Below are positions 7,997 through 62,140 of a stretch of DNA of 64,000 nucleotides, piece by piece. The notes under the pieces are model-generated. The model did no database searches. It was given only the letters and a program-made list of their open reading frames with translations, and had not been told where the DNA came from. Origin of the DNA: Octopus vulgaris (Eukaryota); NCBI GenBank assembly GCA_951406725.2, contig OX597816.1:148614001-148678000 (forward strand). The letters are read 5' to 3'. How positions within the stretch are numbered: position 1 is the first letter of the stretch; every line of letters begins with the position of its first letter. The position numbers were made by a program, and so were the translations under genes.

Positions 7997-8039
<43 letters not shown>
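7836..8039. repeat. Compound trinucleotide microsatellite (GTA)n-(GTC)n-(GGT)n-(GTA)n-(CTA)n-(ATA)n
   Basis: Read directly from the sequence. Confidence 0.95.
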
Positions 8040-15604: not shown

Positions 15605-15673
<69 letters not shown>

Positions 15674-15835
15674 TTGAAATTTATAGAACAGCAAAAGACA
15701 AAGACAGGTGTATGGACAACAAGCAGGTTTATTAGTTTGGCGCTCGGGAAAATGAAAAAGCCTTTTACATTTCGAGCCTACGCTCTTCATCAGAAATGAA
15801 TAAGAGAAAATAAACAGAGAGAGAATGAAAGACAC
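15674..15835 (-). mobile_element. Penelope-like pLTR remnant with a minimal hammerhead ribozyme (15763-15797)
   Basis: Minus strand reads ttt CTGATGA a GAGC gtag GCTC GAAA t GTA aaa, followed by gagcgccaaact...ttcaact and then (ATCT)n. Same family as 35.3 kb. Confidence 0.65.
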
Positions 15836-18389: not shown

Positions 18390-20064
18390 GCATGTATATA
18401 TATATATATATATATGCACATACATACACATATGCATATACATAGACATATATATACATGTATTTCTGTGTATGCTTATATGTGTGTGCGTGCATATATA
18501 TATATATGCATATATGAATATATGTAAATATGCGAGTGTATGTATATGTATGTGTGTGTATGTGCGTGCGTGTGTGTTTGTATGTATATATATATATATA
18601 CACACACGATATTTTTGTATATTGATCGTCATTGTTTTTATTTTAGCTTTCATGCTTTTTAATCAGTAGATGAATAAATTTCCTCGAATGTTGCTCTCTG
18701 GTTCCGTGATGGGACGTCATCTGTTGCAGAAGAATGGCGCAGATAATAAGTTGTCAGTCAAATATGGACGTTTGAGAAACTACGTTTCATTGTTAATGCT
18801 TTTATTGTTGCTGTTGTTGTTGGTAGTAGTGATGATGATGGTGGTAGTTATGATTCTGCTAGTAGTCATGTAGTTGCAGATGCTGGTGATTGTGTATGTC
18901 TTATAGTGCTTGTGATCCGGTTTACCAAGTTCATAATAATGACGACGATGATGATCATGATGATCATGATGATTATGGTGGTTATGTTAGCAATGGTGAT
19001 AATTATGGTGGTCTCAAGAGGAGGTGAAGGAGATTCAGCCGTAGTACTACCACTAGTAGCGGTTGTGTCAAGAGTGGCGGTTGTGGTGGTGGTTTTGAGT
19101 GTAGTCGATGCGCGTGGATGTGGATGTGGATGTGATAATGAAGTTGGTGTTGATGATGTATTCAATGTAATGATGTCAGGAAAATCGTTTAGTCAGTAAT
19201 GATGAATATGCTTGTTGCGACGACGTAAAAGAAGAGGAATATACAAATTTTAAAAAATAACTTTGGGCAAAATTTAAATGAGATTTGTAACAAACGGTAG
19301 AAAACCAGGCTAAATATGTTGCGGAATTTTTCGGTGTTTTTTTTTTTTTTACATTACTGTATTAGATTCTTTGAATGTTTCGATTCAAACTGTTCCTTTT
19401 GTCTTCCGTCATTTTACCAGAAAATAACTAGCCCCTAGTATTGGTGATATACCTGTCAACAGTTCCAATAATTTACTATCCACTTAACCTCTCTCATATC
19501 ATTATTTTTTTTTTGTATTCTCTTCTGATATGATCTCGTCGCCATAAACAAACAAATCATTCATCAATTCTATGTTGCCTCCATATTCCATTATCTACTC
19601 GCTTCCACTTATTCTGCCTTATAACTAAAACAAGACATTTTACACAAGGTACAACACAAAACTATGCCACTAATTTTTGGTATCGACAAGTTCCCCTCTG
19701 ACGCAAGCTTTTGTGTTTCTCTGTCACAAAACATATATTTTTGTTAATTTCAAACATTAACACATAACACATAAAATAAACCTATATTTATCGCTTTGGA
19801 TCTCACAAAACACATAAAAAATATCTTTATCATGAAGTCTGAGACAAAGCTTTCCAAAATATTTATCCTTGGCTGTCATTGTTCCTTGTCCATATCTCAG
19901 GCTATTCTACTTTTCAAAATTGGGTGCATGTCCACTCACATTCCATTCATTTTCTTGTTTGACAAGATGGTAGCTCCATGAAGTTTTCTTCGTGATGAAC
20001 AGTGTTATTAATTCCTTGTAGCCTGTAACCTATTCAACCATCACACCATATTCATGATGTGATA

Positions 20065-20565
20065 AGGCGGCGAGCTGGCAGAAACGTTAACACGCCGGGC
20101 GAAATACTTAGCGGTATTTCACCTGTCTTTATGGTCTGAGTTCAAATTCCGCTGAGGTCGACTTTGCCTTTGATCCTTTAAGGCGGCGAGCTGGCAGAAA
20201 CGTTAGCACGCCGGGCGAAATGCTTAGCAGTATTTCGTCTGCCGCTACCTTCTGAGTTCAAATTCCGCCGAGGTCGACTTTGCCTTTCATCCTTTCGGGC
20301 TCGATAAATTAAGTACCAGTTACACACTGGGGTCGATATAATAGATTTAGTCCGTTTGTCCTCTCTGTGTTTAGCCCCTTGTGGGTAGTAAAGAAATAGG
20401 TATTTCACCTGTCTTTACGTTCTGAGTTCAAATTCCGCCGAGGTTGAATTTGCCTCTCATCCTTTCGGGGTCTATAAATTATGTACCATTTGCGTACTGG
20501 GGTCGATCGAATCAACTGGGCTCCTCCCCAAAAAATTCGAGCCTCGTGCCTAGAGTAGATAAGTA
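20065..20565 (+). mobile_element. SINE nested in a SINE, with a 67-bp duplication
   Basis: Full copy at ~20180-20398 flanked by near-identical 20113-20179 and 20399-20465. Confidence 0.85.
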
Positions 20566-22303
20566 TATTCATGATGTGATATCTATAAATTCTTGCGTGA
20601 CTAGAAACGTGGTTTACTTGTCTAATTTCACCTATAGTAAATCTATTATCTTTCTACTTGTAAATATTATTTAGCCACATACTCTAAAAATTACAATAAA
20701 TATTTTAATTCCCTTTTGTACGTATCATACACACACAGAATAAATGAAATAGTTGTCTATAACTGGAACAGCAAGGATAACCTATGTTTATCAATATACA
20801 AACTGAGGAGTCTTCAAATCACTCGTACATTTCAACATTAAAACAAAGTAGCAGGGATCATGTACCAATTGTAACGGGTTGAATACCCGTTTTAGAAAAA
20901 CGTAAATAAATAATATTACTATTGCTTTCCAAAAATCAAATTTTCTACCCTCGAAACATCAATTTAGTCATGTTCTAAACGTTTATTTTCCTTTGTTGCT
21001 TCTAAACACTTGCTTTCACTATCTCTTAGTTACCAGTATATTACAACGTGTTCTAATCTATAAACTTCGTATTCTAAACACCTCATATCTCTAGTCTATT
21101 CGAAGTTTCGAAGTACCAAATTATTATAGCTCTCAAACGGCATTGTTTTCGTTTATCTACTATAAAATCTATTTTACCTTTGACGTTTGACTATTTGCTA
21201 CCACCTAAATACCGAATAATCCATCAACAAATCACTAACAAAGGAGACTGTGTGACAGATTATACATTATCCTTTGATATGCTAGATACGGAGCCAAACC
21301 ACAACATACTATCTTAAAAAATGAAAAACATTTTATAGAATATAGCTCAAGATATTGCTAGAAACATTGGGTTGTGTTACAGTGTATTTCATAAAAGGTC
21401 GGCGCAGCCAGAGTTGATCTCGAGTTAAGAAACAAAGGACACCAAATCACTGGGTTAATCTAGATCCGAAATATCATTCACATTCCAAGATTATCTTTGG
21501 AAAACAAATATTTCGATGTAGTAAGAATGTCCCAGTACCTCCCACGTGATGGCTACTTGTTCCTATTAATCATCTCAACATTCTTCCGGCATTATTGCAC
21601 GCGAACACCCATTTTTGTCATGTGACCACAAAGCAAGAAGTGCACTGACACCTTAACTCAATTACAGTTGCCTTCAGATAGAATTCGAGATTATCTTTCG
21701 ACGTTAACACAAGTAAAACGGTGTGAGCATTTACAGTGTATTACAATACAATACGACCAATTAGATATAAGCATATAATATTTACAATAAAAGTATAATA
21801 ATTGTTTACAATAAATAAATTTGTTAAATAATTATTTCATGATTTACTATATCATAAATACATTTCAAATGATGAAGACGTTAGAATTCACTGTTGTTTT
21901 CTAAAGTGTTAGCTCTACAGGTGTTATCTACAGAAGTTTTCAAAAACGAATAGCTTCTTTGTAAGAAAACATATAAGATTGATCTCATGGGGTATGATTT
22001 TGGACATTTGTGGTTTATTTATATTATATATACTACGTTTTCTTTTCAAATATATTTTTATCTTTTATCTTGAAACAGAACACAAATCAATGAACCAGGC
22101 AGTTTAGAAAATAAAATTATCTGACATTCATTAGAAGCAGCGTGTATCTCATACATTTGTGAAAGTTATGGATTCTTCTTACACAAAAATACACACACAC
22201 ACACATATTTATATTTATACACACACACATGTATTTGTATGTGGTGTATATGGGCGTGTGTTTGTGGACGTATTGTGTAAAAATGTGTGACTGCCTTTAT
22301 ATG

Positions 22304-26044: not shown

Positions 26045-26250
26045 TTTCAAATTTTAGCACAAGGCCAGCGGTCGGGGTGGGGAGTCGATTACATCAACCC
26101 CAATGAGCAACTGATACTTATTTCATCGACCTCGAAAGGATGAGAGGCAAAGTCTATCTCGGAGGAATTGTAAATCAGGACGTAAACACGGACTAAATGC
26201 CGCGAAGCATTTTGTCCGGTGTGCTAACGATTCTACTAGCTCGCCACCTT
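26045..26250 (-). mobile_element. tRNA-derived SINE, older monomer
   Basis: Similar to the family core over ~200 bp. Confidence 0.8.
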
Positions 26251-26878
26251 ACAACGAATATATCAAAAATAAAATAAACATACGCGCGCGCACACATATC
26301 ACTAAAACTAACTACGCGCACACGCACACAAACACACAGGCATAAGCGTAATTACGTGCACATAACTCAACAGATTCACATGCATACAATCATACAAACT
26401 AACCTGTTCGTTACATCTCCTGTGCTCTACTGTGCATGAAACTTCTTTTTTCCTTTGACTTTAGGTTATATATATATCCAACATAGATTGATGCGAATCA
26501 ACATACGCATTTCTTCAATTTATTCTCTTTGTCTCTTTTTCTTTCTTTCTTTTTTTTTTTTGTTTTGTTTTTTCACGATCCATTCTTCTGAAGAAGGGCT
26601 TAAGTTAAAAAAAGACCAAAGACATTTCTGGGGGGGGGGTTTCCCCTGAACGCGAAATTAAAGACTATACTTTGCTTTTACTTTGCCTTTCGTGTTATAT
26701 ACAGGAATAAAATGTTAAAAAGACAGTCAGTCAAAGTTTTTTAAATTTCTAACAAAACGAAATACCTTTCATTGGATTCATTGATTTAATAAAACATATT
26801 GACTCAGATTTAATACTTTGAGTTCTTTCTTCTAAGCATCGTTACCTTGTTCCTCTTAACAGGCAGCCCCAGAATTTA

Positions 26879-26987
<109 letters not shown>

Positions 26988-27389
26988 GTGACGGTGTGAA
27001 ATGCTGCATTGAATACCATCTCTTCACCTTCAAAAGTAATATAACCATTTGATGGAGATCGAGAAAATATATACTAGACTGGAATAAATTATGGGATTGA
27101 TATAATTACCAAAATGCTTGAAGTCGGTGCTCCAGGCTGGCCGTAATTCAGTGACTGGAACCAATAAAAGAATAAAAGAATAAGTCAAAGTAAGTCATTT
27201 TGTTTACTAAATTCATCTTCTGCCGATACTCTACCGGTTCTGATATATAATCCTGATAAAAAAAAATATCACCAGATCATTTTTTTATGATCTGTGAAAG
27301 GATAAAAGACCAAGTTGACACCGGTGGGATTTTGATTTCGAACATGAAAGGTAGTAAGTAAATACAGCAAGATATTTTACCTTAACATA

Positions 27390-29159: not shown

Positions 29160-30440
29160 TTTTATTTTAGTCACAAGGCCACAAATTTAATTGGAGGGGC
29201 GTAACCAATTATACCGATTATGCTTAACTGGGGTTTATTTTATCTGCCTTGGTAGGATAAAAGTCTAAGTTTATTTTGGCGGCGTTTGAACTTCTTACGT
29301 AAACGGACGTAATTGTCACAAGATATTTCATCCAATGTTCTACCGATTCTGCTAATCCACTTCCATATTATTATTAATAATATTAGTTTCTAACCTGTTG
29401 ACAATACTACACACCTGGCGTTGATGCAGCATTGTCGATTAATCGATCCCATTAATAGAATTGAAATTATTAAAGATGAAAGGCAATGTCTACACCCCTA
29501 TAGGATTTGAACTCAGCGTATTATGATACGTAATTAATTATCAAATGGTATTTTCTGACTATCTATCCGATTTTCTAACCCACTGCATTTCTGTCGTTAT
29601 TAATCAATTAATCGATTCTACTGATTTGTATTTGTTTTATGAAGGATGAAAGGCAATGTCAACATCCCAATGAGATTTGAACCCAGGATATAAAGACAGA
29701 TAATTGAATGCCAAAAGGCATTTTCTGACAATCTATCAATTCTTCTAAATCCAGAGTTTGTCTGGTGTGAAAATACTCTGTGCTCTTACGGCGACGGACG
29801 AATAGAACTGTTATTACTGCGTTACTTCACTCTGTTTCAAATCCACCTAGATCGACTTCGTTCATCCTTCTGATAATAACTGGTTTCAACTTTTGGCACA
29901 GGCCAGCAATTTAACAGGTGGAGATAAGTCGATTACATCGACTCCCCATTCCCACCCAGTGTTCAACTTGTACTTATTTTATCGGCCCCGAAAGGGTGAC
30001 AAGCAAGGTTGACCCTGACGGTATTTTAACTCGAACATGAAAACGGTCGACATGCCGCAAAGTATTTTGATCGCCGTGCTAACGATTCTGCTAGCTCGCA
30101 TCCCTCGCTAGCAATAATCCTTTCTACTATAGAGTCAAGGCCTAAACATCTGGAGGAGGGGACCAGTCGATTACATCAACCCCAGTAATCGACTTGTACT
30201 TATTTTATCGACCCCGAAAGGATGGCAAACAAAGTCGACTTCGGCGGCATTTGAAATCAGAACGTAAAGACGGACGAAATGCCGCTAAGCATTTTGCCCA
30301 GCATGCTAACGATTCTAACAGCTCGCGGCCTTCACTCTGCTGATAATAATAAAATAAAGGACCAGTCAAGTAAAGAAGCCGATTTAATCAATTTTGCTCA
30401 CCACCAAAAATATGTTCGACCTTGTACCTATGTTAGAATT
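29160..30440. mobile_element. Pile-up of at least six SINE copies of graded divergence, mostly minus strand
   Basis: Repeated gaaaggatgaaaggcaa..gtc..atttgaactc..attctg cores at about 29.2, 29.45, 29.65, 29.95 and 30.2 kb, plus a plus-strand piece at 29.8 and 30.35 kb. Confidence 0.7.
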
Positions 30441-33889: not shown

Positions 33890-34205
33890 AAAAATTTTTT
33901 ATGGAGAGGCAGAGACTAGTAGATTACATCGACCACAGTGTTTCACTCGTACTTAACTTATCGACCCCCGAAAGGATGAAAGGCGAAGTCGACCTCGGAG
34001 GAATTTGAACTCATATCGTTCAGACAGACGAAATGCTGCTAAGCATATTACCCAGCATGCTAACAACTCTGCCTTCTCGCCGCCTTCAAAAGGATGGAAG
34101 GCAAAGTTGATCTAAGTGGGATTTGAACTCAGAATCTAAAGAGCTGGAAGAAATACTATCAAGAGCATTTTTTTCCAATAACCTAATAATTCTGTTAGCT
34201 CACCA
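33890..34205 (-). mobile_element. tRNA-derived SINE plus an adjacent older partial copy
   Basis: Family core present twice. Confidence 0.75.
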
Positions 34206-34702: not shown

Positions 34703-35269
34703 CATACATACATATATATGCTCTTACTATTTTTAAGCAGAAATAAATGCAGCGAAGTATAACAAGATAAAATAAAATAAGTAGATTGCATCAATAGAAT
34801 TTAAAATTTTAATTGTTTTTACTAAACTGCGAAAATGAGCATTTTACTCTGTCGTTAGATTTGGTAACCATTTTGGAGAGCCTATTCACAAGTTCATTTG
34901 AACACATTAAAATGCATAGTGACGCCTCAAAACAGAGATAACGAGATCTTGAAAATCTATTGTACGTGCATGCATTTTTTATCACCGTTTATATCATGCT
35001 GTATTGTACTTTTCATTCCTTGTTTCCAGAGATCAAGTCAGCGAGAGATGTGTAGTGTCTCTTAATAATGTTTTTAAACGATGCAATGTGATTACAATAT
35101 CGATGTCGCGGTCGCACCTATATATACAACTGCTTCTGCTTGCGTTCTAAACTTTACATTCGTATATTACGGTAGTTAATAACTGTGTAGGAGCTTTGCA
35201 TTACATACTATAATGTTCTTACCAAATTTGTATTCAAGTTTTATTCTGTTTTTTTTTTTATTCGATTTC

Positions 35270-35415
35270 TCTCCGTTTTTTTCCTCTCTAATCCTTTCTC
35301 TCGAAGAGCGTAGGCTCGAAACGTCAAATACCTTTCCATTCTTCTCGAGCGTTAAACTAACACACCTGCTTGTTGCTGGTTCACCTTCGTCTTCTCCTTT
35401 CTGTAAATTTGAACT
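35270..35415 (+). mobile_element. Penelope-like pLTR remnant with a mutated hammerhead (35295-35328)
   Basis: ttt CTCTCGA a GAGC gtag GCTC GAAAC GTC aaa, with the same downstream sequence family as 15.7 kb. The CUGA core is damaged. Confidence 0.55.
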
Positions 35416-38352: not shown

Positions 38353-38765
38353 AGGCGAAGGAGTGGCTGTGTGGTAAGTAGCTTGCTTACGAACCACATG
38401 GTTCCGGGTTCAGTCCCACTGTGTGGCACCTAGAGCAAGTGTCTTCTACTATAGCCTCGGGCCGACCAAAGCCTTGAGTGGATTTGGTAGACGGAAACTG
38501 AAAGAAGCCAGTCGTATATATGTATATATATATATGTATGTATGTGTGTATAGGTTCGTGTGTCTGTGTTTGTCCCCCCAACATCGCTTCACAACCGATG
38601 CTGATGTGTTTACGCCCCCGTAACTAAGCGGTTCGGCAAAAGAGACCGATAGAATAAGTACTAGGCCTACAAAGAATAAGTCCTGGGGTCGATTTGCTCG
38701 ACTAAAGGCCGTGCTCCAGCATGGCCACAGTCAAATGAATGAAACAAGTAAAAGAGTAAAAGAGT
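38353..38765 (+). mobile_element. Full-length second tRNA-derived SINE family (CORE-like)
   Basis: A-box gtggctgtgtggta, B-box ggttcagtccc, CORE-like gcaagtgtctt, an internal microsatellite, and a tail gaaacaagtaaaagagtaaaagag. Confidence 0.85.
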
Positions 38766-38793
38766 AAATGTGTGTGTATGGACGTATGTATAC

Positions 38794-40500: not shown

Positions 40501-40609
40501 TGGAAAGTAGAAGTATATTCCCACGCAGGAAAAAAGTACAGGAGAATTTGTTTTAGGGTTTGAAAATGCACCTGAATCTGAAAAACGTGTAGTCGTATTT
40601 AAATATTCT

Positions 40610-40747
40610 TTAATTCTTTTATTTGTTCCAGTCATTTGACTGCAACCATGCTGGAGCACCGCCTTTAATCGAACAAATCGACCCCAGGACTTATTCTTTG
40701 TAAGCCTAGTTCTTATTCTATGGGTCTCTATTGCCGAACCGCTAAGT
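40610..40747 (-). mobile_element. 3' half of the CORE-like SINE family
   Basis: Reverse complement of 38625-38760. Confidence 0.8.
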
Positions 40748-41256: not shown

Positions 41257-42069
41257 TTTGATCTGATCAGTAAGTATCCGGACCGTTACCATAGTAACAA
41301 AGCTAAAGCACGCAGCGTAAAGCGTTTGGCACAGATTTGAAGGAAGGTGTTTAGCGTGTGATCGTCGTATTGGCTATGACAGAGAAAGTTGTCATGGTGA
41401 TACTTACTCAGAGGCGTACGCAAAGTTGCAGAAACTGTATGGAGAAGAGCGTATGAGCTGCACTCAAGTGTACGATTGGGTCAGACATTTCAAAGATGGC
41501 CGAAAAATTGCGATATTGACGAACATTCTGAGAGACCCGCAACTACCAGAAGTGAGAAAAACATCGCAGATATGCATGCAGCTGTGAGGGGAAATCCTCG
41601 AATCATCATCCGTGAGTTATCAGAGGATGTGCAGATTAGTTAAGATTCAGTTCAGTCCATTATCACTGAAGATTTGGGTATGAGACGCATCTCTGCCAAG
41701 TTTGTGCCAAAACTACTTTCGGCTGACGAAAAAGACACTCGGGTTTCAGTTACACAAGATTGCCTTGATTGTGTCGAGAATGACAAAAACTCTTTGAGAA
41801 CTTTTTCTATGAACAGGTATCGCCAAGCTTTTGGCAAAATTTGATGCATATTTTCTGCTCAACTTTCTCTGTCATGGTCAATGCGACGATCACACGCTAC
41901 ACATCTCCCTTCCAAACACTGCTGTAAGCAGCGGAAGTGAGTTAAAACGTTAAAACTTAGTGCGCATGCACAGCAGGGTTCAAGGTCAATCTGGGTCAAG
42001 CAGCTTTACTCTGCATGCTTTAGCTTCGTTACAATGGCAACAGTCCGGATATTTATTAATCAGACCACG
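41257..42069. mobile_element. Mariner-derived element with two 5' ends (long TIRs), TA-flanked
   Basis: About 65-bp imperfect TIRs. The plus strand encodes HTH..RISAKFVPKLL. The minus strand at ~41815-41876 encodes MTEKVEQKICIKFCQKLGDT, a second transposase start. Confidence 0.85.
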
Positions 42070-42870: not shown

Positions 42871-45030
42871 GTTTCTTTATTAGCCACACAGGGCTGCACA
42901 CAGATAGAACAAATTACAAGGTAGAGCTTTTCTTTTGAAGGTTTTAAAAAAAAAAAAAAAAAGGAAAGGGGGAGTTTCGATCAAAAGGGATCGTAAAAGG
43001 AGAGAAAGAGGACAAAAAAGGGGGGTTAAAAAAAGGGGGAGAGGAAAAAAAAATTGATCAATAGGGATCGTTATCACAGAAATGTCAATATGAAGTGTAA
43101 AGGGGAGGACAGGTGAGGTTTACCCGTGGAAAGAAAAGCCTACGGAAAAGACCACGGTAACCTCGGTCAATGAAGTCACATTTTATATTTCTTTTTTTTT
43201 TTTTTTTTTTTTTGCAAATAAGCAAATCTCTGTTTTCAATTTCTGGGTTCATAGGATTATGCTCAAGGTGGCTTCGTCATTCATACGTGCCATTCTTGCT
43301 ACATTCACCCATCTTTTTTTAAAACATTCGCTAGACAAAACTTGCCTCTCTACTCTCACTATCCTTTTCAAGTGGTACTTGAAGAAGTTGATGAGAGATT
43401 GACCAGAGAGGAAAGTGTTTGTCTCCAATCCTTTCAGACGCGTCCACCAGATACATTCTTTCGCCATAGCCACAAGGATGATGAAAATAGCTCTTCCTTC
43501 CCGTTTGAAGGAAGGAGGCGTGACAATATTGACGATAGACTCAGCTGATAAACCGACTCGTCCCACATGTGACAGCAGTTGTTCGACATAAGCCCACAGG
43601 TTGGAAATTGTTGGACACTGAACGAGTGCGTGCAGAACGGTTTCGTCGCTCTGACCGCATCTCGGGCAGGTCGGCCCCGTGATTCTCGAGCCGTGTCTGT
43701 AGAGCTTATCCCGAACGGGTAGCGCTTCTCGGTAGCACTGCCAGGCCAGGGATCTCTGGAAGTTGTCCATGGGCCCTGGCCCGAAAGTCGTCCTGAACAG
43801 GCGGGTCAGGTACTCCTCGTCGACGTCCAGGTTCGCCCCGAGCTCGTCGTCGTACCTCCCCTCCACTAAACCCCTATAGAATGCTTTGGTTGTGTTGAAG
43901 TCACTTAAGGTCGACCCAGGACGGCAGAGTTGCTTGAGAGCAACGCGACACTCGCGGTGCCATTCGCCCTTCCTCGGCCTCTTTTTGATCCACGACTGCA
44001 GTTCGGTCATGGAGACGAGCTGCGGGAAAGCGTGCCTCACAAACGGCGACCACACCTGTTCACCGTCGTCTACATAGAGCCAGAGATGTCGCAGTCTCAG
44101 CGCGTATCTGCGCATCATCAACCACGGCATGCCCAGCCCTCCTTTTAACGGGTGTTGACAGCAAATGGATCGCCTGACCATCGGGACGCATCCTTTCCAC
44201 AAGAAGCGAAAGAGAATGCGTTGTAGTTTGGTGATGGTAGGGTCGGGACAAGGTACGACGGTCAGGCGGTAGTAGATGACGGACGCGATGTACGTGTTCG
44301 CCACCTCCGCTCGACCTTTTAGGGACAGTTTCCTCTCGGCCCATTGCCGGGCGAGAGTGACCACCCTACTCGTTATCTCGTTCCAGTTCTTCTCCACTTG
44401 GAGGTCCGGACCAAACCAGACCCCGAGCAACTCAACCGGGCCGTCGGTCCAGCGTCCCACGACGGAGGCGCTGGTGGACGGCATGGGCTTGCTTCTCCAG
44501 GTGCCTAGTCGCAAGCCCACTGACTTTTCCCGGTTGATTTTCGCTCCTGTCACCGCTTCGTAGTTTTTCAGTGTCTCGCCGACCAGCTCGATGTGCTCGT
44601 GGCTAGACACTATGACGGTGACGTCGTCCGCGTATGCAGACACGCTCGTCCCGCATCCCAATTCTCGCGGGATGCCCCTTAGAGTCGCCAGCTTCCGCAG
44701 TAGTGGCTCAAGAGTCAATACGTATAGAAGCGCCGAGAGGGGGCATCCCTGACGGACCGAACGTGCAATGTCGAAAGGTCTCGATAGATGTCCATTTACG
44801 CGAATTACCGAACGGATGCCTCTGTACAAGGCAGCTATCCAGCCGCGGAAGACAGGACCGAAACCAGCCGCTCTCAGGACTGCCTCCAAGTATCGATGGT
44901 CTACCCTATCAAAGGCTTTCGATTGATCCAAGTTGATCAGGGCCCCAACCATGCCAGGTTCGTTAACTACCCTGTCTATGATGTAGCGCATCAGATGGAG
45001 GTTGTCATGGATGGTCCGGCCTGGCACGGC
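42871..45030 (-). mobile_element. 5'-truncated Tx1/L1-clade non-LTR retrotransposon inserted in (GATA)n
   Basis: Clearly GC-richer than its flanks, with (GATA)n on both sides. A ~380-nt 3' UTR ends AATAAAGAAAC and runs directly into (TATC)n. Confidence 0.92.
43249..45030 (-). CDS. ORF2 remnant: reverse transcriptase and C-terminal CCHC finger. It has no start codon; the N-terminus in the ORF track is SINE/microsatellite read-through.
   Basis: LDQSKAFDRVDH, SVRQGCPLS, YADD, LLGVWFG, KGGLG and CPRC..ETVLHALVQC. About 593 codons without a stop. Confidence 0.9.
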   Translation of the reverse strand, partial: AVPGRTIHDNLHLMRYIIDRVVNEPGMVGALINLDQSKAFDRVDHRYLEAVLRAAGFGPVFRGWIAALYRGIRSVIRVNGHLSRPFDIARSVRQGCPLSALLYVLTLEPLLRKLATLRGIPRELGCGTSVSAYADDVTVIVSSHEHIELVGETLKNYEAVTGAKINREKSVGLRLGTWRSKPMPSTSASVVGRWTDGPVELLGVWFGPDLQVEKNWNEITSRVVTLARQWAERKLSLKGRAEVANTYIASVIYYRLTVVPCPDPTITKLQRILFRFLWKGCVPMVRRSICCQHPLKGGLGMPWLMMRRYALRLRHLWLYVDDGEQVWSPFVRHAFPQLVSMTELQSWIKKRPRKGEWHRECRVALKQLCRPGSTLSDFNTTKAFYRGLVEGRYDDELGANLDVDEEYLTRLFRTTFGPGPMDNFQRSLAWQCYREALPVRDKLYRHGSRITGPTCPRCGQSDETVLHALVQCPTISNLWAYVEQLLSHVGRVGLSAESIVNIVTPPSFKREGRAIFIILVAMAKECIWWTRLKGLETNTFLSGQSLINFFKYHLKRIVRVERQVLSSECFKKRWVNVARMARMNDEATLSIIL

Positions 45031-45114
<84 letters not shown>

Positions 45115-46146
45115 ATGTTTGAGGGTATAGCCGATCATATCAACCCAGTACTTGGTGGGGTACTTTATTTTATCAGTCCTGAAAAGATGAAAGGTTAATT
45201 TGCCCTCGGACAATAAGGGAAAAATACCACTAGGCATTTTCCGACACCCTTACGATTCTACCAGTCCACAGCCGCAAACTCTACGCTACGAATAAAAAAT
45301 AGCGTCAGCTCTATAGTCGTTTTGTTTGAAATACTTTTTCTTCAACTTCTAATTCCCCAATCGATACTCAGTCTTAGTTTCATCTTCAAGACACAAAATC
45401 TTAAAATTCTAGAAATATAGAGTTAATTACTACATAATTCAGTAGTCTATATTCACTAACTGGCATTGCTTTCGTGATTAAATCTAACTTCCGGGCTTAT
45501 AAAAATATTTTGGAGAAACTATTCTCTATTAGTCTAGAGAACCATAATTTCTATTACAACAGAATATTTAATCATGAGATTTGCAACCTATGAATTCCTA
45601 TTAAACTTTTCTTCTTTTTATTAACCTTGATGTTCCTACCGCATCGAATTCTCCTATTTAACTTTCCGTCCAAGAATAATTCTAGATTATTTTTTTTTAT
45701 GAACTCGTTTATATTTTCTTTATTTGTACTCCAAATCTACAATTAATTTCTAACGGGATTTTCACTGATTTATCTCTATCCACTTTGTGATATTTTATAT
45801 TCTTTCAAAATCTAATTTTTATTCGATAATGTTTTATAACAGAATTTATGCGGATGAAAATTCTTCGTGTTATGTGTGATACATTTGGATTTATAATTCC
45901 ATTGTCCCAACATTTACTAATTTGCTCTCAATAGCCAATTCCAGCCAACACACATATTGTCAGCTTGACAATGCATTGCAACAGCTAATGTTATTTTTTT
46001 AGATATGTACGACTTAGTTTTGCCTTCTTGTATACAGCCATCTGAATGTTATTGCTATTTTGCGCGAAGATTCAAAGATACATTTCGATCGATTATTTTA
46101 CTTTCTTCTTTGCCTGTTATGCAGTTGTTCAAACACACGCACACAC

Positions 46147-46999: not shown

Positions 47000-47196
47000 G
47001 ATAGATAGATAGCATTTTTCTCTAAACATGCATTGTATTACTTTATTTGAAATGCTACGGTTTGCCAATATTTTTACAACAACTCCCCAATAGAAACAAT
47101 TTTTTGTTACGTCTGATAAAATTGCACATTACAATCCAATAAGGTCTTATCATTTCAATTGGTATGTCTTTTTGTTAATATTGTATTAAATTCAAG

Positions 47197-47407
47197 ACGG
47201 CGAGCTGACAGAAACGTTAGTACGCCGGGCGAAATGCTTACCAGTATTTCCTCTGTCTCAGAGTTCAAATTCAACCGAGGTCGACTTTGCCTTTCGGGGT
47301 CGATAAATTAAGTACCAGTTGCGTACTAGGGTCGATCTAAAACAATTTTGGGCCTTGTTCCTCCCCTAAAAAAATTTCGGGCCTTTTTCCTAGAGTAGAA
47401 AAGAATA
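47197..47407 (+). mobile_element. tRNA-derived SINE monomer
   Basis: gacggcgagctgacagaaacgttag..gagttcaaatt..cctttcggggtcgataaattaagtaccag..gtagaaaagaat. Confidence 0.8.
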
Positions 47408-48826
47408 TAGGAACCGAGAATGTATATTTAGTGTATTTTGTAGGTTAAATATATAATCCTTACCATATATTTTCAGATGCTTTTTCATCAGATATCCTCA
47501 TAAATAAAAGTAAAAATTTAAATTTTATTTTCTTATAATACTTATCGGCTTTGTCTTTATTATTTCTATTTCACACATATTAAACAAATTTTTTTATTTC
47601 ATTTACTAGGAAGGAGATTGAATATAACTTTTGATACTGATGTATAAATATTCATTACATATTTGGGTTATAGAATGAATTTAATTTAAATTAATTATTT
47701 ATCCAAATTCAAATTTCGGAAACATCATTTTAATAATAGCAGCTTTTTCAATTTGTTAATTCTTTACAATTTTTTCGCTTTTATAACTGAAATTAATCCT
47801 TTTTCAAATTAAAACAAAGGTTATAGACGTTATGTTAAAATAGTTCAACATTTTCTGTGTAAAATTCCCTTTTCGCAGCTCTCATAAACAACCTCTGTTC
47901 TTGAAGATATTACCTTCTTTTTCAGAGTATGGGGTTTATATTCATAATTTCATAAAACGAGATATTTCATATAACGATATGTATATTAAACATCTCCCAT
48001 TCACACAATTTTCACCCAACTTGCTTATGTTCTTATTTTGGCTATTTCTATTCTTCTTTTTGTATTTTTCTTTACTTATAATGCTACTCCACACAATACG
48101 TCTATTTATTCCTCTTATGATTCCTTTAACATGATTACACATGACTGATGTTTCCTCATCTAACATAGTTTTAAAGACTAAATTTAAGGGAAGTTGAAAC
48201 TTATCATTTAAAAACAAATAACTTTATGTTGAAAGCATTACTTATAACACAACACAAACCTAAAATAAACACAGGCTATAAATACACGTGACAAACAAAA
48301 TATACATATGAATAATGGCATATGAATCTAACCATCATTTTTTCCACCAGCTATTCCTGGGAAGATTGTAAGAGCTAAGTACTCACGCACCTCCACATAG
48401 GACCCTATCAGAAGCAACAGGCATTATAATTTCCGGTTGGATTCCCAAGCGTAATCAACTGAGAGCCTAGATATTATCAACACTTTTTGGTCGACACTTC
48501 GGCCTCTTGCTGGTTGACTTGGCTGTAAGTATCTATTTTGAAATTCTTTCCTGCGATATTTTAATAACATGTCCGAAGTACCAGAGCCGTGGTATCTTGA
48601 TGTCGATAAGTAGCAGCTCGACCTGGAGAACCACACTGATCTTCAAGCTACACACCTTGTGGATTAATGTTAGTTCAGAGATCCTGCATATAAATCTAGC
48701 GATTAAATTTCAAACTGAGCAAAACATCTCAACGTCTAAAACAAAATCAGGCGATAAAATCTATAGAAATACCACTTCACTGCTCTAAAAGAAGGCAGAT
48801 ACATACAGTAATAACACTTTATCTTC

Positions 48827-49747: not shown

Positions 49748-49755
<8 letters not shown>

Positions 49756-50143
49756 AGTGAATTGAAGAAATGGAGTTGAACGAAGATTGAACAGAAATCG
49801 TTTTATTGCATTCTACACGTGTTTCGAAAGGCACAATTTACCAAATTCCGATTGAATAATGAGACCATATTGTGTCTTTCTCTTCAGGAAGAAATAGGAA
49901 ATCCGTTGGAAAAAACAAAAACAGAACAGAGGCGGAGGCATTTCTGTTCAATCTTCGTTCAACTCCATTTCTTCAATTCACTAATAATATTAAAATTCAA
50001 TTATCCGCACCAACGCACGATTGCAACACCATATAGTTGTACCTCCAACCGTGCTGTCTTCTGCTGTGATTTTTGCTACCAAGGTATCGGTTAAACTTTT
50101 GATTAATCTACAACAAGATTATTCATCTTTCTATTTCACAAAA
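49748..50143. mobile_element. (TA)n-bounded inverted-repeat element 1, with a hammerhead in the spacer
   Basis: Perfect 51-bp arms at 49748-49798 and 49940-49990. Confidence 0.75.
49811..49890 (-). ncRNA. Type-I hammerhead ribozyme with a long stem II
   Basis: ttc CTGAAGA gaaagacacaat..attgtgcctttc GAAAC acgt GTA gaa. Stem II pairs 11/12 bp, and stem III ACACGTGT is palindromic. Confidence 0.7.
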
Positions 50144-50196
50144 TATATATATATATATGTATGTATGTATAAGGATGAAAAGGAACACACGAGTTG

Positions 50197-50470
50197 ATAT
50201 ATATGAAAAAACAAGTCAAAATAGAAAATGCTAAAATAATTTTATAAAGAACATCTCAGTACCGGTTTCAGTCATTTTGAGACCTTTTCAACTGTAACGA
50301 TTAAATAATTAAATTTAGAAAAATTAAAAGAAAAGTATTTTAATTTTTCTAAATTTAATTATTTAATCGTTACAGTTGAAAAGGTCTCAAAATGACTGAA
50401 ACCGGTACTGAAATGTTCTTTATAAAATTATTTTAGCATTTTCTATCTTGACTTGTTTTTTCATATATAT
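50197..50470. mobile_element. Inverted-repeat element 2: 133-bp arms, 8-nt spacer
   Basis: Arms at 50197-50329 and 50338-50470, with 2 mismatches seen. Confidence 0.85.
50373..50410 (+). ncRNA. Minimal hammerhead, U3-A8 core variant (mirror copy on the minus strand at 50257-50294)
   Basis: cag TTGAAAA GGTC tcaaaat GACT GAAAC cg GTA ctg. Confidence 0.6.
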
Positions 50471-50480
50471 ATATATATAT

Positions 50481-50675
50481 ATTTATTATATAGAAGGAGC
50501 TTCTACAGGACTAGAACTGTTTCATTCAAGAGAAATCTTCAGGAAGCTCCTGAAGATTTCTCTTGAATGAAACAGTTCTAGTCCTGTAGAAGCTCCTTCT
50601 ATATAATAAATTAATTTTACTCTGCTATGTATTGAGTACCTTATTTACTGTGGTTAACCCCGAATCAACCCGGGA

Positions 50676-50677
<2 letters not shown>
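50481..50677. mobile_element. Inverted-repeat element 3: perfect 64-bp arms, 3-nt spacer, plus a 3' extension
   Basis: Arms at 50481-50544 and 50548-50611, with (TA)n on both sides. Confidence 0.85.
50496..50550 (-). ncRNA. Hammerhead ribozyme with an 8-bp stem I
   Basis: ggagcttc CTGAAGA tTTC tctt GAAt GAA ACAG ttctagtc CTGT A gaagctcc. Confidence 0.65.
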
Positions 50678-50731
<54 letters not shown>

Positions 50732-50832
50732 TAATCCAAACATGAAAACACAAAGAGAAAACACAACAACGCGAGGACGTGGAACAAATGTAGTATTATT
50801 GGACGCTCAGGAAGGAAGGGAAGAAGGAGAGT

Positions 50833-50865
50833 TTTACGTTTCGAGCGGAGCTCTTCGTCAGAAAC
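50833..50865 (-). ncRNA. Minimal hammerhead in a Penelope-like pLTR remnant (50728-50930)
   Basis: ttt CTGACGA a GAGC tcc GCTC GAAAC GTA aaa. The downstream gagcgtccaat motif and the end at (TA)n resemble the 15.7 and 35.3 kb copies. Confidence 0.7.
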
Positions 50866-51379
50866 ATAGGAAAAGGAAAGATCCAGAGAAGGGAAGACGG
50901 AAGAAAAAAATCGCCAACGGTACACACGCGGTACACACACATACACACATACATACACTCACATATGCACACACAGACATACATACGCACACACACACGT
51001 GCGTGCGATCAGACATCCTTACACGCACGCCCGCACAGCCTCATCACGCACTCTTACACACTTCTCACACCTAACACATACTGATATCATTCCCGCATTC
51101 ACACTAATCGATGTCACCAAATTTATACACATGTACACATCTACATATATCCCACAAAATACTCATGCAACTACCATTCCTCCGATGTCCACAAACACAG
51201 ACACACTCTATCTACAAACCTTCCTCCACATTCCTTCTTGATTCTCCTTCAAAGAAAGGTATTCTATCTGGCTTTTAGCCCTTTATTTTCCTTTGTCTTC
51301 TTTCCCCATTTATTTTATCGTTATGACTTCTTTACTGCACTCTCGCTCTCTCTTTTCTCTCTCTCTCTTCTTTCACTCT

Positions 51380-51415
<36 letters not shown>

Positions 51416-51524
51416 TTCCATCAATCACTCTCTTTCTGTGTCCTTCACTCTCTCTTTTTCTCAGTCCCACAGTCTCACGCCCTCTTCCTTATTTATTCTC
51501 ACCATGTTTCTCCCAATTATTTCC

Positions 51525-51558
51525 TTTCTGAAGAAGGACTAACGGCTGAAACGTCAAC
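51525..51558 (+). ncRNA. Degenerate minimal hammerhead
   Basis: tt CTGAAGA aggactaacggct GAAAC GTC aa. Stem II pairs poorly, and aagcgttaaact follows downstream. Confidence 0.4.
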
Positions 51559-51673
51559 ACACTACCCATTTATTTGAAATACTTTCAAGCGTTAAACTTA
51601 TTTCAAGTGTTAAATTGCATAGTCACACATACACTACATGCACACACACACACACATAAATATATATATGTGT

Positions 51674-51720
<47 letters not shown>

Positions 51721-51727
51721 TGTGTGC

Positions 51728-51771
<44 letters not shown>

Positions 51772-52024
51772 TAATGGTTCAAGCAGTGAAAGTGGATATT
51801 TTTACTGTGGCATTGATTGTGGTACAGCCTCCAATTTCATGCAGTTCTGCTGAGATTTATGCTGCTGATGCTGATGGGGATTATGACGACGAAGACACCA
51901 GCAACGCTGATGTTGAAGATGAAAGCGAAAATGTTTACGCAGCAACATTCACTTGCCAAAAACAGACATATCCTAACAAATACATACAATACATAGAAAT
52001 ATATATGTATTATATATATATTAT

Positions 52025-52080
<56 letters not shown>

Positions 52081-52269
52081 CTTGCAAAAATATAGTTCCA
52101 TATACACACAAATATATACATAGAAGTGATGATGTATAAAAATTATGCTCAAATAGCATACGCTCACTAACATAACTTACAATACTGTATGTTAAATGTA
52201 GGTATATATGTGGCTGTACGCATGTGTATATGTATGTGTGTATGCGTGCGTGCATGTATACATATATAA

Positions 52270-52326
<57 letters not shown>

Positions 52327-53566
52327 GCGGGAGAAAGAGCGTGTGAGTGGAATAGCGAGAGGGTAGATAGAGGGAAAGGGTATGTACATAAACATTTATA
52401 TATATTTTATGTATAATTTATAATATATCATATATACATTCCCTTATAGGTAAAATATCTATCTGCCCTTATAGATACATACATACATACGTATTCATAT
52501 TCATATATACACACATATATATATTTTAGGTTATAGATAACATAATTATATATAAAGTATATAAAGTATATTTATGTATATGTTCAATATATGTATTTTA
52601 TCTGTCAGTTTCTTTCACTTTTTTTTCTTTTGTATTAAGTTTTTTCTTGTTCTAGTCTCGTGTGAATTAAACTTTCTTGTGTTCTTGTGTTCTTATGCTC
52701 TTGTAACCTGTAATGAACTAACTAAATGTAATTGGAAGTTTCCAGAATAGAGAAGTAAAAGTAAAATAAATCACGAAACGTAACATGCTGCTGTTTTTCC
52801 AAGCATGAACTGCAATGATTTGATAATATTGTTGTTTGTTAGACAAGATTTTGCAACTGTAAATGTTATTGTAGCGTTAGATGTGTTTGCTGTTTATGGT
52901 GTCGGCCATTTCTATTGCTGCCTGCAATAAAAAACAATAATTCCGACACAAATATGGAGTAGATTCAGATTTATACGAGTGAAATATTTCATGGGAATAT
53001 GTAGCAAATCATGCAATTTATGTGATTGTTGTTGCTGTGGTTCTTGTCGTTGTTGTTGTTGTTGATGATTTGTAACTTTCATATCTGCTGCGACGATACA
53101 ATCTCTTATTCAGACATAGTTTATCTACATCTACATTAACCTTTTTAAGACGTTAGGGCGTGATTTGATGTAGATTTGGCACCTCAAACGACTGCCTGTA
53201 AACCATTAAGTTGGCACAATGTTTCAGAGGTTTCTGTTGTTGTTGTTGGTGCTGCTGCCGTTGGTGCTACTCTTGTTGTTTTGCTGTTCATGTTGTTGCA
53301 GTTTGTAATGTTTATCCTTTGTCTTGTCTCACAGCCAGATGGAAGAACGACAACTTCTTATTACAGAAACATTATAGATAGATATATCTCGTCACAGCTC
53401 CTACTAGCTTGAATCTAAACTGTGGTATTACGAAGTATTTTAATCTTGACATGTATAATCTTAATCTTGACATGTATAGCAGTGGTCGAATATATGAAAG
53501 GTTCAGATGCGAGAAATGATCTCTTAAAATGAAATCCCAAATCACTTGAAAGATAGAAATTAACTG

Positions 53567-53611
<45 letters not shown>

Positions 53612-53616
<5 letters not shown>

Positions 53617-53888
53617 TGCAGCGTGGAAGGTGTTTGTAAGCCATTTAAGAAACACACGAAAAGCCGTTCGATTCACTGACAAAAATCCGTGCGGATTTTA
53701 GTGAGTGAACAGGTCGCGGATTTTAGCGACGAAAATATTTTGACAAATATTTTAACTTAAATGTTGAAGTGAATCGAACGGCTTTTGTGTGTTTCTTAAA
53801 TGACTAACAAACACCTTCCACGCTGCAATTGTTTTCGTTCCAGCACACGATCTCAGATTAAATCACTTGCTATGCGAGTACATCTCCG

Positions 53889-53890
<2 letters not shown>
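53612..53890. mobile_element. Inverted-repeat element 4, with a hammerhead-like fold in the spacer
   Basis: Arms at 53612-53677 and 53768-53832 with a few mismatches, (TA)n on both sides, and a 3' extension to 53890. Confidence 0.8.
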
Positions 53891-53925
<35 letters not shown>

Positions 53926-54013
53926 CGCATATTTGCCATTTAAATATGGCTAACCCCTAAGGGTGGATGCTATTGTAGTTTGTAGCCCCAACTCGCTCTG
54001 AGATTTATCATTG

Positions 54014-54069
<56 letters not shown>

Positions 54070-54071
<2 letters not shown>

Positions 54072-54390
54072 TGAGAACCCCTTCGGTCATGACTGATCAT
54101 GGTATTGCACCTAGAAAGTTACCCTCCCAGGCACAAGTCCCGGCAAGGTTGTTTATGGAAGACCAACAGTCACCCATCCCCTCTCCATGCCACCAGTGTT
54201 ATCCAAGGGAAAGGCGACAAAGGCCGATACACTTTGGCACCTGTGACGTCACAACTCATTTCTACAGCTGATGAACCGGAGCAACGTGAAATAAAGTGTC
54301 TTGCTCAAGAACACAACACGCAGCCCGGTTCGGGATTCGAACTCACTATCTCATGATCGTAAGCTCGACGCTCTAACCACTGACCTATGC
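54070..54390 (-). mobile_element. Third tRNA-derived SINE family (CORE-like)
   Basis: Minus strand reads ggtcagtggttagagcgtc..gagttcgaatccc..gtgttcttgagcaagacacttt. Confidence 0.75.
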
Positions 54391-54472
54391 ACATATATAT
54401 ATATATGTGTATATATATATATATATATCCACACACATATATATGTATATATATATATATATGTATGTATGT

Positions 54473-54551
<79 letters not shown>

Positions 54552-55277
54552 CTGGGTCATCCCATAAATAATGAGGTTTTGGCAAGTGCATTAACACAAC
54601 GTCGGAGGGGGACGACATAAACTTCCTGCATCAACTTGCTATAAAAACAGGTAGTAAATTCTGCCTTGTACTTATTATTACTGCAAGTTTTGAAGAGTGC
54701 AGTTAGACTATAACAGTTATTTTTTCAAAGCTATAATGGAAATGGTAAAGAAGCATATTCGGTATATTTTGCTTTATGAGTTCAATAAAGGCAACAACGC
54801 AACGGGAAGTGCGAGGAATATTAATGCAGTATATAGAGACTGGACAATAACCGTAAACCAGTGTCAACAGTGATTCCAGAAATTTCGAGCCGAAAACTAC
54901 AGCCTAGATGACGATCCTCGTGCTGAAAGATCTGTACAGCTCAACGAGGGCGTCCTGCAAACCCTGGTGTAACAAACTCGCAAACCCTGGTGTAACCATA
55001 TTCGCCGACCATTGCCCAATCTGATTATCATTTATTCTGCAGTCTTCAAAATTATTTGGACGGAAAAAATATGAATTCTGTAGACGAGGTCAGGACAGTA
55101 CTAGAGGAGTATTTTTCGTCACGGTCAAGTGAATTTTGGAAGAGAAGCCTTGCAAGTCTACCAGATAGACAGAAGAGCATTGTAGAAAATGAAGGAGAGT
55201 ATATTTTGGATTTAAAAAGAACTTTGTTTATCCTAATTTTGAAAAGTAAAAAAACTGCATTATTTATTGGATGACCT

Positions 55278-55279
<2 letters not shown>
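54552..55279 (+). mobile_element. Internally deleted mariner with both TIRs and a TA target duplication
   Basis: TIRs ctgggtcatcccataaataatg / cattatttattggatgacctaa. HIRYILLYEFNKG..DDPR is joined to PYSPTIAQSDYHLF..LPDRQKSIVENEGEYI. Confidence 0.9.
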
Positions 55280-55334
<55 letters not shown>

Positions 55335-55352
55335 CATACATACATACATACA

Positions 55353-55384
<32 letters not shown>

Positions 55385-55454
55385 CATATATATATATAAA
55401 ATATATACAATATATACATAATTATATATTCATATATATATATATATATATATA

Positions 55455-56220
55455 TGGCCATCCACTCGTGACCGAGGAAGACCATTGCTGACCTTCAGGA
55501 ACATTGTGATCTCTAGGACTAATTTATATTTTGTATTTGCGGCTCTGTTGGTGGCTAATGAGTCCTGCTCTTGACAAGCGTACACGACTGCAAACATCGC
55601 AAACCAAGCTTTCTCCATTCTATTTCTTTACTACCCACAAAGGGTTAAACACAGAGGGGACAAACAAGGACAGACAAACGGATTAAGTCGATCATATCGA
55701 CCCCAGTGTGTAACTGGTACTTATTTAATCGACCCCGAAAGAATGAAAGGCAAAGTCGACCTCGGCGGAATTTGAACTCAGAACTCAGAACGTAGCGGCA
55801 GACGAAATACTGCTAAGCATTTCACCCGGCGTGCTAACGATTCTGCCAGCTCGCCGCCTTTCTCCATTCACTATACCAGCGATGCGCTTTCGAGCACCAT
55901 GCTTAAGTTCTTCATGCAGAATACGTGCTCTCTCAAAAGTGTCGGTCCCCTCCTTAACCTGCTTCCTCCATCTGTGGTGATGACAGGCAGTGTTCTTCCA
56001 GTCAGTCTCCTGAATATCACAGGCCTTAATGAGTACTTGACACAGTCCTTAAATCGCAGCCTTGGTTTCTACCGGGGTCTATTTCCATTCACAAGTTCCT
56101 CATATAGCATCTGCTTAGGGATCCTGTTATCCTTCATTCTAATAAGGTGTCCAGTCCAACGTAATCGGTGCTTGTGCACCATCGCCTCAATACTCAAGAT
56201 ATTAGCTGTCCTCAGGACAT
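55455..56220 (-). mobile_element. RTE-clade LINE 3' fragment interrupted by a SINE
   Basis: SIEAMVHKHRLRWTGHLIRMKDNRIPKQMLYEEL..KPRLRFKD and C-terminal CDVCSR. Confidence 0.85.
55621..55857 (-). mobile_element. Young SINE monomer with a 12-bp target-site duplication
   Basis: ctttctccattc occurs at both 55609-55620 and 55858-55869. Confidence 0.9.
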
Positions 56221-56248
56221 GGTGTCTATAGTTTTTAAGGCCCAATCA

Positions 56249-56318
<70 letters not shown>

Positions 56319-56321
<3 letters not shown>

Positions 56322-56900
56322 CAAAATAAGCAACAAGGATATCCAAAGTAGAGTAGTACAAATGTTTCATACTACTTCATTTTATTAAACACTGTAAGTA
56401 TTACATCAGTTTTAAAATGTCGAGCAATCTTCAGCCACAAATATAATTTTCCAATTAAACCCCTTCATTTATCTATAAATAGAAAAATTCTTGTCTCCAT
56501 TCAACCAAGAATAAAAAATCCCCTTCCCACTGATAGATCTAAATAACAAAGTGAACTCAATGATAAAATCTACAGACGGATAATGAATATACTACTATCA
56601 TGTTCTTAAGAATGTCTATATATCTACCTTCTTTATAATGATGGCAAATGAAATAGGGATAAGAATGTGCATTGTCCGTTTAATTGGAGAATTCTATATG
56701 TGGCTGAAGTTTGCTCGACATTTTAAAACTGATGTAATACTTACAGTGTTTAATAAAATGAAGTAGCATGAAACAATTGTACTACTCTACCTTGGATATC
56801 CTTGTTGCTTATTTTGATTTTAATCACCTTATTTTGAAATTGTATGGCTAATACCGTGCTAAATTCTGGTGCCTCAACGTACGTACCATATTCATCTGAA
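56319..56900. mobile_element. Inverted-repeat element 5: ~142-bp arms, each with a long-stem-II hammerhead
   Basis: Arms at 56319-56460 and 56678-56819. The ribozyme reads gtgg CTGAAG(A/T)..long hairpin..GAAAC aatt GTA ctac. (TA)n on both sides. Confidence 0.85.
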
Positions 56901-58249: not shown

Positions 58250-58332
58250 ACTCGTTTCCATAGAAGAAACCGATAAAATACAGGAGCTATAAGTCCTATA
58301 GAGAATGGAAATAATGATAAGAATAAATAAAT

Positions 58333-58425
<93 letters not shown>

Positions 58426-58500
58426 TCTATTCTTATTATTTCCATTCTCTATCGGACTGATAGCTCCTGTACCTTATCGGTTTCTTCTAAGGAAACAAGT
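58250..58500. repeat. Inverted repeat (~80-bp arms) around a (TA)n(GA)n spacer
   Basis: Arms at 58250-58332 and 58421-58500, with several mismatches. Confidence 0.8.
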
Positions 58501-61934: not shown

Positions 61935-62140
61935 TTTATCTTTTATCTTTCATTTGTTTCAGTCTTAGACTGCAGCCATGCTGGTGCACTGACTTGAAGA
62001 ATTTTAGTCGAACGAATTTACCCCAGTACTTCTTTTAAGCTCGATACTTATTCTATCAATCTCTTTTACCGAACCGCTAGATCATGGTGAAGTTAACACA
62101 CCAACACTGGTTGTCAAGCGGTGGAGGGGACAAACAGATA
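61935..62140 (-). mobile_element. 3' half of the CORE-like SINE, diverged
   Basis: Similar to the reverse complement of 38570-38760. Confidence 0.7.

Follow-up and report, generated by a model that had tools for sequence, protein, structure and literature searches.

A cluster of five palindromic elements, here called e1 to e5, lies in a 64-kb stretch of the Octopus vulgaris genome (GenBank assembly GCA_951406725.2, contig OX597816.1, positions 148,614,001 to 148,678,000, forward strand). This whole stretch is called the window below, and positions are counted from its first letter. The original prediction described the elements as (TA)n-bounded palindromes that each carry a hammerhead ribozyme fold, and self-comparison of the window recovers all five in the places assigned to them. 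In each, a truncated inverted copy and a direct copy are arranged head-to-head. We also found an additional element, e6. We argue below that the palindromes are probably insertion debris of Penelope-like elements (PLEs).

Element e1 (49748-50143, plus strand) consists of an inverted copy at 49748-49939, read on the minus strand, and a direct copy from 49940 that ends in a 153-nt tail (49991-50143). Its inverted arms (49748-49798 and 49940-49990) are 51 nt long and 100% identical. The candidate type-I hammerhead (49814-49887, minus strand) lies within the loop between the arms and has a C3-G8 core pair, a long stem II, a palindromic 8-nt stem III, a GUA triplet and a 3-bp stem I, with AATAAA 7 nt downstream. 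Element e2 (50170-50470) has 133-nt arms (50197-50329 and 50338-50470) that are 98% alike around an 8-nt centre. Its 27-nt tail sits on the left (50170-50196), and e2 is therefore oriented on the minus strand. The e2 hammerhead (50376-50407, plus strand) has a U3-A8 core, a 4-bp stem II, a palindromic 6-nt stem III and a GUA triplet, and a second copy with an identical core occupies 50260-50291 on the minus strand. In e3 (50481-50677, plus strand), identical arms of about 65 nt (50481-50545 and 50547-50611) meet on the 5' margin of stem I, where they pivot and overlap by about 4 nt, and a 66-nt tail (50612-50677) follows. Its hammerhead (50504-50542, minus strand) combines a C3-G8 pair with a 9-bp stem I, a weak stem II with a basal U-U, and a 4-bp stem III; the plus-strand motif copy begins inside stem I and lacks the 5' strand of that stem.

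The fourth element, e4 (53612-53890, plus strand), belongs to a high-copy family. It joins an inverted copy (53612-53691) to a direct copy from 53692, with arms of about 65 nt that show three differences (53612-53677 and 53768-53832) and a 58-nt tail (53833-53890). Its predicted hammerhead (53698-53747, plus strand) has G3 at 53705 and C8 at 53710, an extra G after A9, a 5-bp stem II, GAAA at 53731-53734, a palindromic 6-nt stem III and a UUU triplet, with the cut predicted after 53740. The inverted copy appears to have suffered a 64-nt deletion between two TTCACT hexamers, and the minus-strand motif is missing. The largest element, e5 (56319-56900, plus strand), has arms of 141 to 145 nt that are 94% alike (145 nt when measured at 56316-56460 and 56678-56822), a 217-nt spacer and an 81-nt tail (56820-56900). 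Its hammerhead (56357-56434, minus strand) has a C3-G8 pair, a long stem II with a basal U-U, a 4-bp stem I and a GUA triplet; the plus-strand copy has A9 changed to U and keeps a perfect stem III palindrome.

The sixth element, e6 (50728-50870, minus strand), is an end resembling the pseudo-long terminal repeat (pLTR) of PLEs. It has a textbook minimal hammerhead at 50861-50835 and no short inverted arm, and it runs into a (TA)25 tract that it shares with e3. The e6 motif resembles the Acropora Neptune motif in the alignment of PMC4209133. Relatives of e6 lie at 15672-15822 (minus strand) and 35268-35415 (plus strand), and their e6-like ends, one at 15793-15766 that runs into (TATC)n and one near 35300 with a decayed core that runs into (GT)n, are 76% alike. 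A decayed hammerhead-like motif at 51528-51557 (plus strand), about 670 nt from the e6 motif and on the opposite strand, may be the distal end of a more extensive inverted insertion.

The shared architecture of e1 to e5 is largely as first described. TA runs flank all five and would mask any target-site duplication. In every element just one of the two arms carries a tail; that of e2, on its left side, had been overlooked. Common primary sequence is absent, as had been claimed: the 15 pairwise local scores among e1 to e6 range from 16 to 23, below the maxima of 23 to 35 obtained from 30 shuffles. Five uniform points in 64 kb would cluster this tightly with p ~7e-4, a post hoc estimate, and 12 of the window's 28 TA runs of at least 20 nt fall within 49.7-57 kb. 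Whole-window self-comparison revealed no other palindrome of this kind with a match to a hammerhead descriptor.

Our strict type-I descriptor requires a Watson-Crick 3-8 pair, and 30 shuffles of the window served as background. It yields six matches in the window versus 0.3 per shuffled window, and four versus 0.07 when stem III must be palindromic. The six are the minus-strand motif of e1, both motifs of e2 (U3-A8), the minus-strand motif of e3, that of e6 (50861), and one at 16142 that looks like chance. The minus-strand motif of e5 passes a relaxed descriptor only, and the e4 copy in the window has two mismatches in stem I and passes only if that stem is not required. Other descriptor matches, at 19917, 48015, 6318, 3722, 31216, 47807 and 47655, were, like 16142, judged to be chance.

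The proposal that each element has a hammerhead is thus borne out by descriptor for e1, e2, e3 and e5, and for e4 only if the majority letters of its family are used. Rfam recognizes none of them: no element scores above threshold, and the only relevant signal is a sub-threshold Hammerhead_HH9 match on e2 (16.7 and 14.8 bits; cut-off 52), with no hammerhead model among the matches listed for e4. Generic hairpin microRNA models that match the elements were set aside. Because such silence is expected for minimal motifs, the hammerhead assignments rest on the descriptors used here. The suggestion that ribozymes reside in both arms holds for e2; e1 has a single motif, and the second motif is truncated in e3, deleted in e4 and altered at A9 in e5.

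We propose that the palindromes arose by head-to-head insertion of 5'-truncated copies from five or more unrelated families of endonuclease-bearing PLEs, each reduced to a pLTR with a predicted minimal hammerhead, and we assign this reading a probability of roughly 0.7. One-sided tails, TA flanks and descriptor matches all support the earlier view that the elements are PLE-related, TA-targeted and hammerhead-bearing. The layout itself is already known, and the five elements are probably, for the most part, ordinary new members of PLE insertion debris that call for no new system. In endonuclease-bearing PLEs, insertions have been described as an inverted 5'-truncated copy with a 30-40 bp tail at one end and a bias toward microsatellites (Craig et al. 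2021, PMC8557442), and Pen elements of Adineta form head-to-head repeats with palindromes at the junction (PMC3846280). Resemblance to the Penelope/Poseidon and Neptune groups extends to the head-to-head truncated copy, the tail at one end, the microsatellite targets and the short overlap at the junction. However, only pLTR stubs are present here, with no reading frame, and a protein would be needed to assign a clade. The statement that the arrangement is undescribed in cephalopods agrees with the literature searched, where we found no such description, but the arrangement has been published for other animals (PMC4209133, PMC8557442, PMC3846280).

The motifs also resemble the minimal hammerheads of metazoan PLEs, which can have a short stem I, an extra base after A9, a palindromic stem III, U3-A8 cores and partners on the opposite strand (PMC4209133). 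In that work, Cervera and de la Pena (2014) found opposite-strand minimal hammerheads 100-700 bp apart and ascribed single motifs to truncated PLEs. Natural U3-A8 cores were also reported by Perreault et al. 2011 (PMC3088659). In the alignment of PMC4209133, a UUU triplet like that of e4 is found in Crassostrea, and Hydra shares with e3 and e5 a stem II with a basal U-U.

Two other classes of element share some of these traits. Animal non-LTR retrozymes are small, noncoding, equipped with type-I hammerheads and likely of pLTR origin (PMC7229834; bioRxiv 10.64898/2026.07.22.740005). However, retrozymes form head-to-tail tandem repeats with mostly canonical motifs and give rise to circles (PMC7229834), whereas the elements studied here are head-to-head pairs with minimal motifs, and no head-to-tail array of hammerhead units occurs in the window. 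Naiad PLEs of Octopus share the preference for insertion into (TA)n, but they have no canonical hammerheads according to the supplement of PMC8557442. Short e1 to e6 motifs searched for in the text of that supplement did not occur there, and an origin from Naiads is unsupported.

Sequence outside the window was compared for e4 alone, with contigs of four out of 24 listed runs at 80% likeness. Matches were found in 9177, 8158, 3375 and 1078 contigs, with organism labels A, B, E and A, respectively. For this element, the matches show a multi-copy family, present in thousands of contigs and three labelled organisms. Summed contig depth is not a copy number and is not used as one here. None of the listed runs is recorded as RNA, and the run with 1078 matching contigs, X12, which is only guessed to be RNA, says nothing about expression. 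Both 3' ends of e4 recur as AT-rich loose ends, at 53891 in 42 contigs of run X1 and at 53615 in 23 contigs of run X4.

The junction between the two parts of e4 is variable. Nine of the 15 joints listed (41 in total), and two more in a separate table, connect the two parts at positions that vary from joint to joint, with the inverted side at 53648-53692 and the direct side anywhere from 53725 to 53868; the nine are each seen in one or two contigs. Among the joints listed there are thus at least 11 distinct junctions, and since they differ between copies, each insertion apparently generates its own palindrome. For the one family examined, these junctions leave unsupported the idea of distinct palindromic non-autonomous families.

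Several observations weigh against a derivation from truncated PLE insertions. Four of the five tails exceed the published 30-40 nt. No reading frame for a reverse transcriptase (RT) or GIY-YIG domain could be linked to any element, either among the window frames near the elements or in the collection scans, and 0-1% of matching e4 contigs continue into unlike sequence. At 80% likeness, most e4 joints have short sides (20-30 letters), and the placement of some may be wrong. Finally, the summed depth of e4 drops by a factor of 16 to 56 to the left of 53692, a position 13 nt upstream of G3. A short template with a defined 5' end would explain this drop just as well as a truncation hot spot would.

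The last of these points leads to the most substantial competing explanation, in which short non-autonomous PLE derivatives are the source. Here an RNA of about 200 nt, extending from just before the hammerhead to the tail, would be copied in trans by an autonomous PLE, and the palindrome would still arise at insertion. Such a short template is a conceivable source, but we regard it as unlikely. The drop in depth at 53692 recurs in all four runs, four joints leave from that position, and both e4 copies start 13-15 nt before G3. Moreover, mobilization in trans of pLTRs alone has been described in rotifers (PMC3846280), and animal retrozymes have been argued to derive from pLTRs (bioRxiv 10.64898/2026.07.22.740005). 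However, natural upstream sequence is missing from the reference, and a branched repeat yields short contigs, so the drop cannot show where a transcript starts. In addition, e1 reaches about 50 nt, and e5 as much as about 240 nt, beyond the core in the upstream direction, and the window holds no tandem array.

Much less probable is the strongest version of the original prediction, under which fixed families, similar to miniature inverted-repeat transposable elements (MITEs) or equipped with two ribozymes, are mobilized as complete hairpins, with cleavage from either strand. With its near-identical arms, two intact motifs and 8-nt centre, e2 would suit this view, but it is the only one of the five with two intact motifs, and the predicted hairpins bury them. 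MITEs have symmetric terminal inverted repeats and a fixed centre, whereas all five elements here have one-sided tails, which are not a MITE trait, and the e4 junctions vary. We give even less credence to fold-back artefacts of assembly or chance motifs. The arms of e1 and e3 are identical, and no matching contig in the four runs spans the whole of e4. Yet the two arms have diverged by 2-6% in e2, e4 and e5, all tails and spacers are unique, shuffles contain far fewer motifs, other e4 copies have the same inverted-direct layout with other junctions, and seven runs contain at least half of the region's sampled words.

The preferred derivation, from 5'-truncated insertions of endonuclease-bearing PLEs, suggests a sequence of events. 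A PLE protein-RNA complex would nick AT-rich DNA, here (TA)n, on both strands, as shown in vitro for the Poseidon element of Anolis carolinensis (Frangieh et al. 2024, PMC11167929). Reverse transcription from each nick would then use either of two initiation sites on the RNA, yielding outward copies of which one is longer by the tail. The two internal start sites, separated by the tail length, are known from the anole element, whose AT-rich targets and two fixed 3' ends resemble the present ones; priming from both nicks is our extension, and the one-sided tail is seen in all five elements. The anole protein is a predicted dimer, and hammerhead cleavage is unnecessary for its insertion in vitro (PMC11167929). 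Both cDNAs would halt early, often just 5' of the hammerhead, and be joined at a point specific to each insertion, as seen for e4. An alternative proposal invokes self-priming on an antisense template (PMC3846280), and our data fit either. The target would remain TA-rich, so that later insertions could arrive alongside, consistent with the TA runs shared by e1, e2, e3 and e6. PLEs tend to insert beside earlier copies (PMC6765202), a habit that fits the cluster, and in O. vulgaris they make up 6.83% of the genome in 190 families, 31 of them recently active (PMC13282606). Eventually the stubs would decay; for any read-through RNA, the predicted fold is a long hairpin in which the ribozyme would be silenced.

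This last step bears on the proposal that elements with ribozymes in both arms could self-cleave from either transcribed strand and form long hairpin RNA. The hairpin part is upheld by prediction: the modelled folds are near-perfect hairpins of -116 to -259 kcal/mol, with the motif paired throughout in e2, e3 and e5. Cleavage from either strand is unlikely according to the same models, because the motifs point outward and the arms bury them in the hairpin, and only e2 has two intact copies. Since both motifs point outward, a read-through transcript would make the antisense arm first. Transcription of the region, should it occur, would more probably yield double-stranded RNA than ribozyme-cut transcripts.

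The core of e4 deserves separate attention. The family-majority letters are T at 53700 (240,601 of 242,145 summed depth, run X1) and C at 53703 (241,579 of 242,330); they restore a 7-bp stem I, and the inverted-copy remnant in the window carries the same letters. With stem I taken from the family majority, e4 has the form expected of a hammerhead, judged by sequence: a Watson-Crick 3-8 pair, stems I to III and an NUH site (UUU). Among 20 variable sites listed, none falls in 53704-53742, which spans the core, stem II, GAAA and stem III, whereas the following 150 nt hold 17 (Fisher p = 0.026; post hoc, and the sites are not independent). No variant at 8 in 100 is listed across 53704-53742, and the indels listed for the motif are confined to loop II. 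An additional subfamily is visible only as loose ends, which do not show its 3-8 pair. A G3-C8 motif with a stem II of at least 5 bp is expected 0.02 times per shuffled window, with a descriptor set after e4 had been seen.

The G3-C8 hammerheads found in the literature searched are engineered variants with partial activity (PMC3884650, PMC8495972, PMC11167929). C3G/G8C in Poseidon is an engineered partial rescue (PMC11167929), whereas in e4 G3-C8 is the state of a family, known here from its sequence. The alignment of PMC4209133, which includes no cephalopod, has G3-C8 in none of its 56 motifs and U3-A8 in three, and e4 differs from all of them in this pair. We found no natural G3-C8 hammerhead in the literature searched, a body of text without Lunse et al. 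2017, figures or bioRxiv supplements. The Lunse study reportedly surveyed ~150,000 small PLE-associated hammerheads, and an earlier report of a natural G3-C8 pair may exist. We tentatively suggest that e4 could represent a very abundant, PLE-dependent family of short retroelements in at least three related species, with an active natural G3-C8 hammerhead and a UUU cut site, although the opposite is somewhat easier to believe.

One joint in run X4 (53748 to 53696; a single row in a single run) belongs to a contig of depth 3227 in which the end of the e4 motif is followed, after six letters, by the start of the motif again. It may reflect tandem repetition, elsewhere in that genome, of a hammerhead unit of about 59 nt, an arrangement that would suit dimer folding. 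The e4 core occurs just once in the window, and the e4 motif pattern matches nothing in the viral contigs or prokaryote genomes scanned. Three metagenome matches are GC-rich (59-61%) and lack the surrounding element, and they were dismissed as chance. The e3 motif pattern is likewise absent from the viral contigs scanned.

As originally stated, the elements have no apparent coding capacity. The Pfam scan covered 25 of the window's 111 frames of at least 90 amino acids and gave no match for the elements, including a 104-codon frame over e1. Just two matches arose among the 25: an unrelated RT (43249-45249) and, at 47945-48223, a match below threshold that is put down to chance. The former is a 666-codon open frame on the minus strand, beside an (ATAG)n run, whose RVT_1 and zf-RVT domains mark a 5'-cut retroelement of L1/Tx1 type, and it was rejected as a PLE partner. 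Six-frame reading by eye found no recognizable endonuclease end in e6 or in the spacers of e1 and e5. Among the loose-end rows listed, no e4 contig runs into a reading frame; contigs of such a repeat are short.

Other repeats in the window are distinct from these elements. Inverted arms of about 80 nt (88% alike) at 58250-58500 surround an (AT)n(AG)n tract; this reverses the layout of e1 to e5, and no hammerhead match occurs there. A family resembling short interspersed nuclear elements has at least a dozen copies, several with a tandem 116-nt subunit, including those at 6389-6622, 8034-8420, 10700-11087, 20063-20568, 26083-26254, 29881-30334, 33897-34156, 47191-47408, 55620-55863 and 4628-4731. 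A second dispersed family, 73-89% alike, is found at 38567-38768, 40604-40747, 61935-62136 and 27118-27182. The element at 41259-42067 has inverted ends that are 82-88% alike, and we take it to be mariner-like.

If transcribed, stubs such as e1 to e5 would be a ready source of near-perfect double-stranded RNA, which bears on RNA editing and on silencing by small RNAs. Standard CUGANGA descriptors and Rfam miss the e4 family, and ribozyme counts in such genomes are therefore likely too low. Cleavage was unnecessary for insertion of the anole element in vitro, and a high-copy family in which C3-G8 has become G3-C8 with all stems kept offers a direct test of what PLE hammerheads do. If the e4 ribozyme is active, a two-step change in the catalytic core would have been crossed with the fold kept, and e4 would allow a test in nature of what selection maintains in PLE hammerheads, cleavage or structure only.

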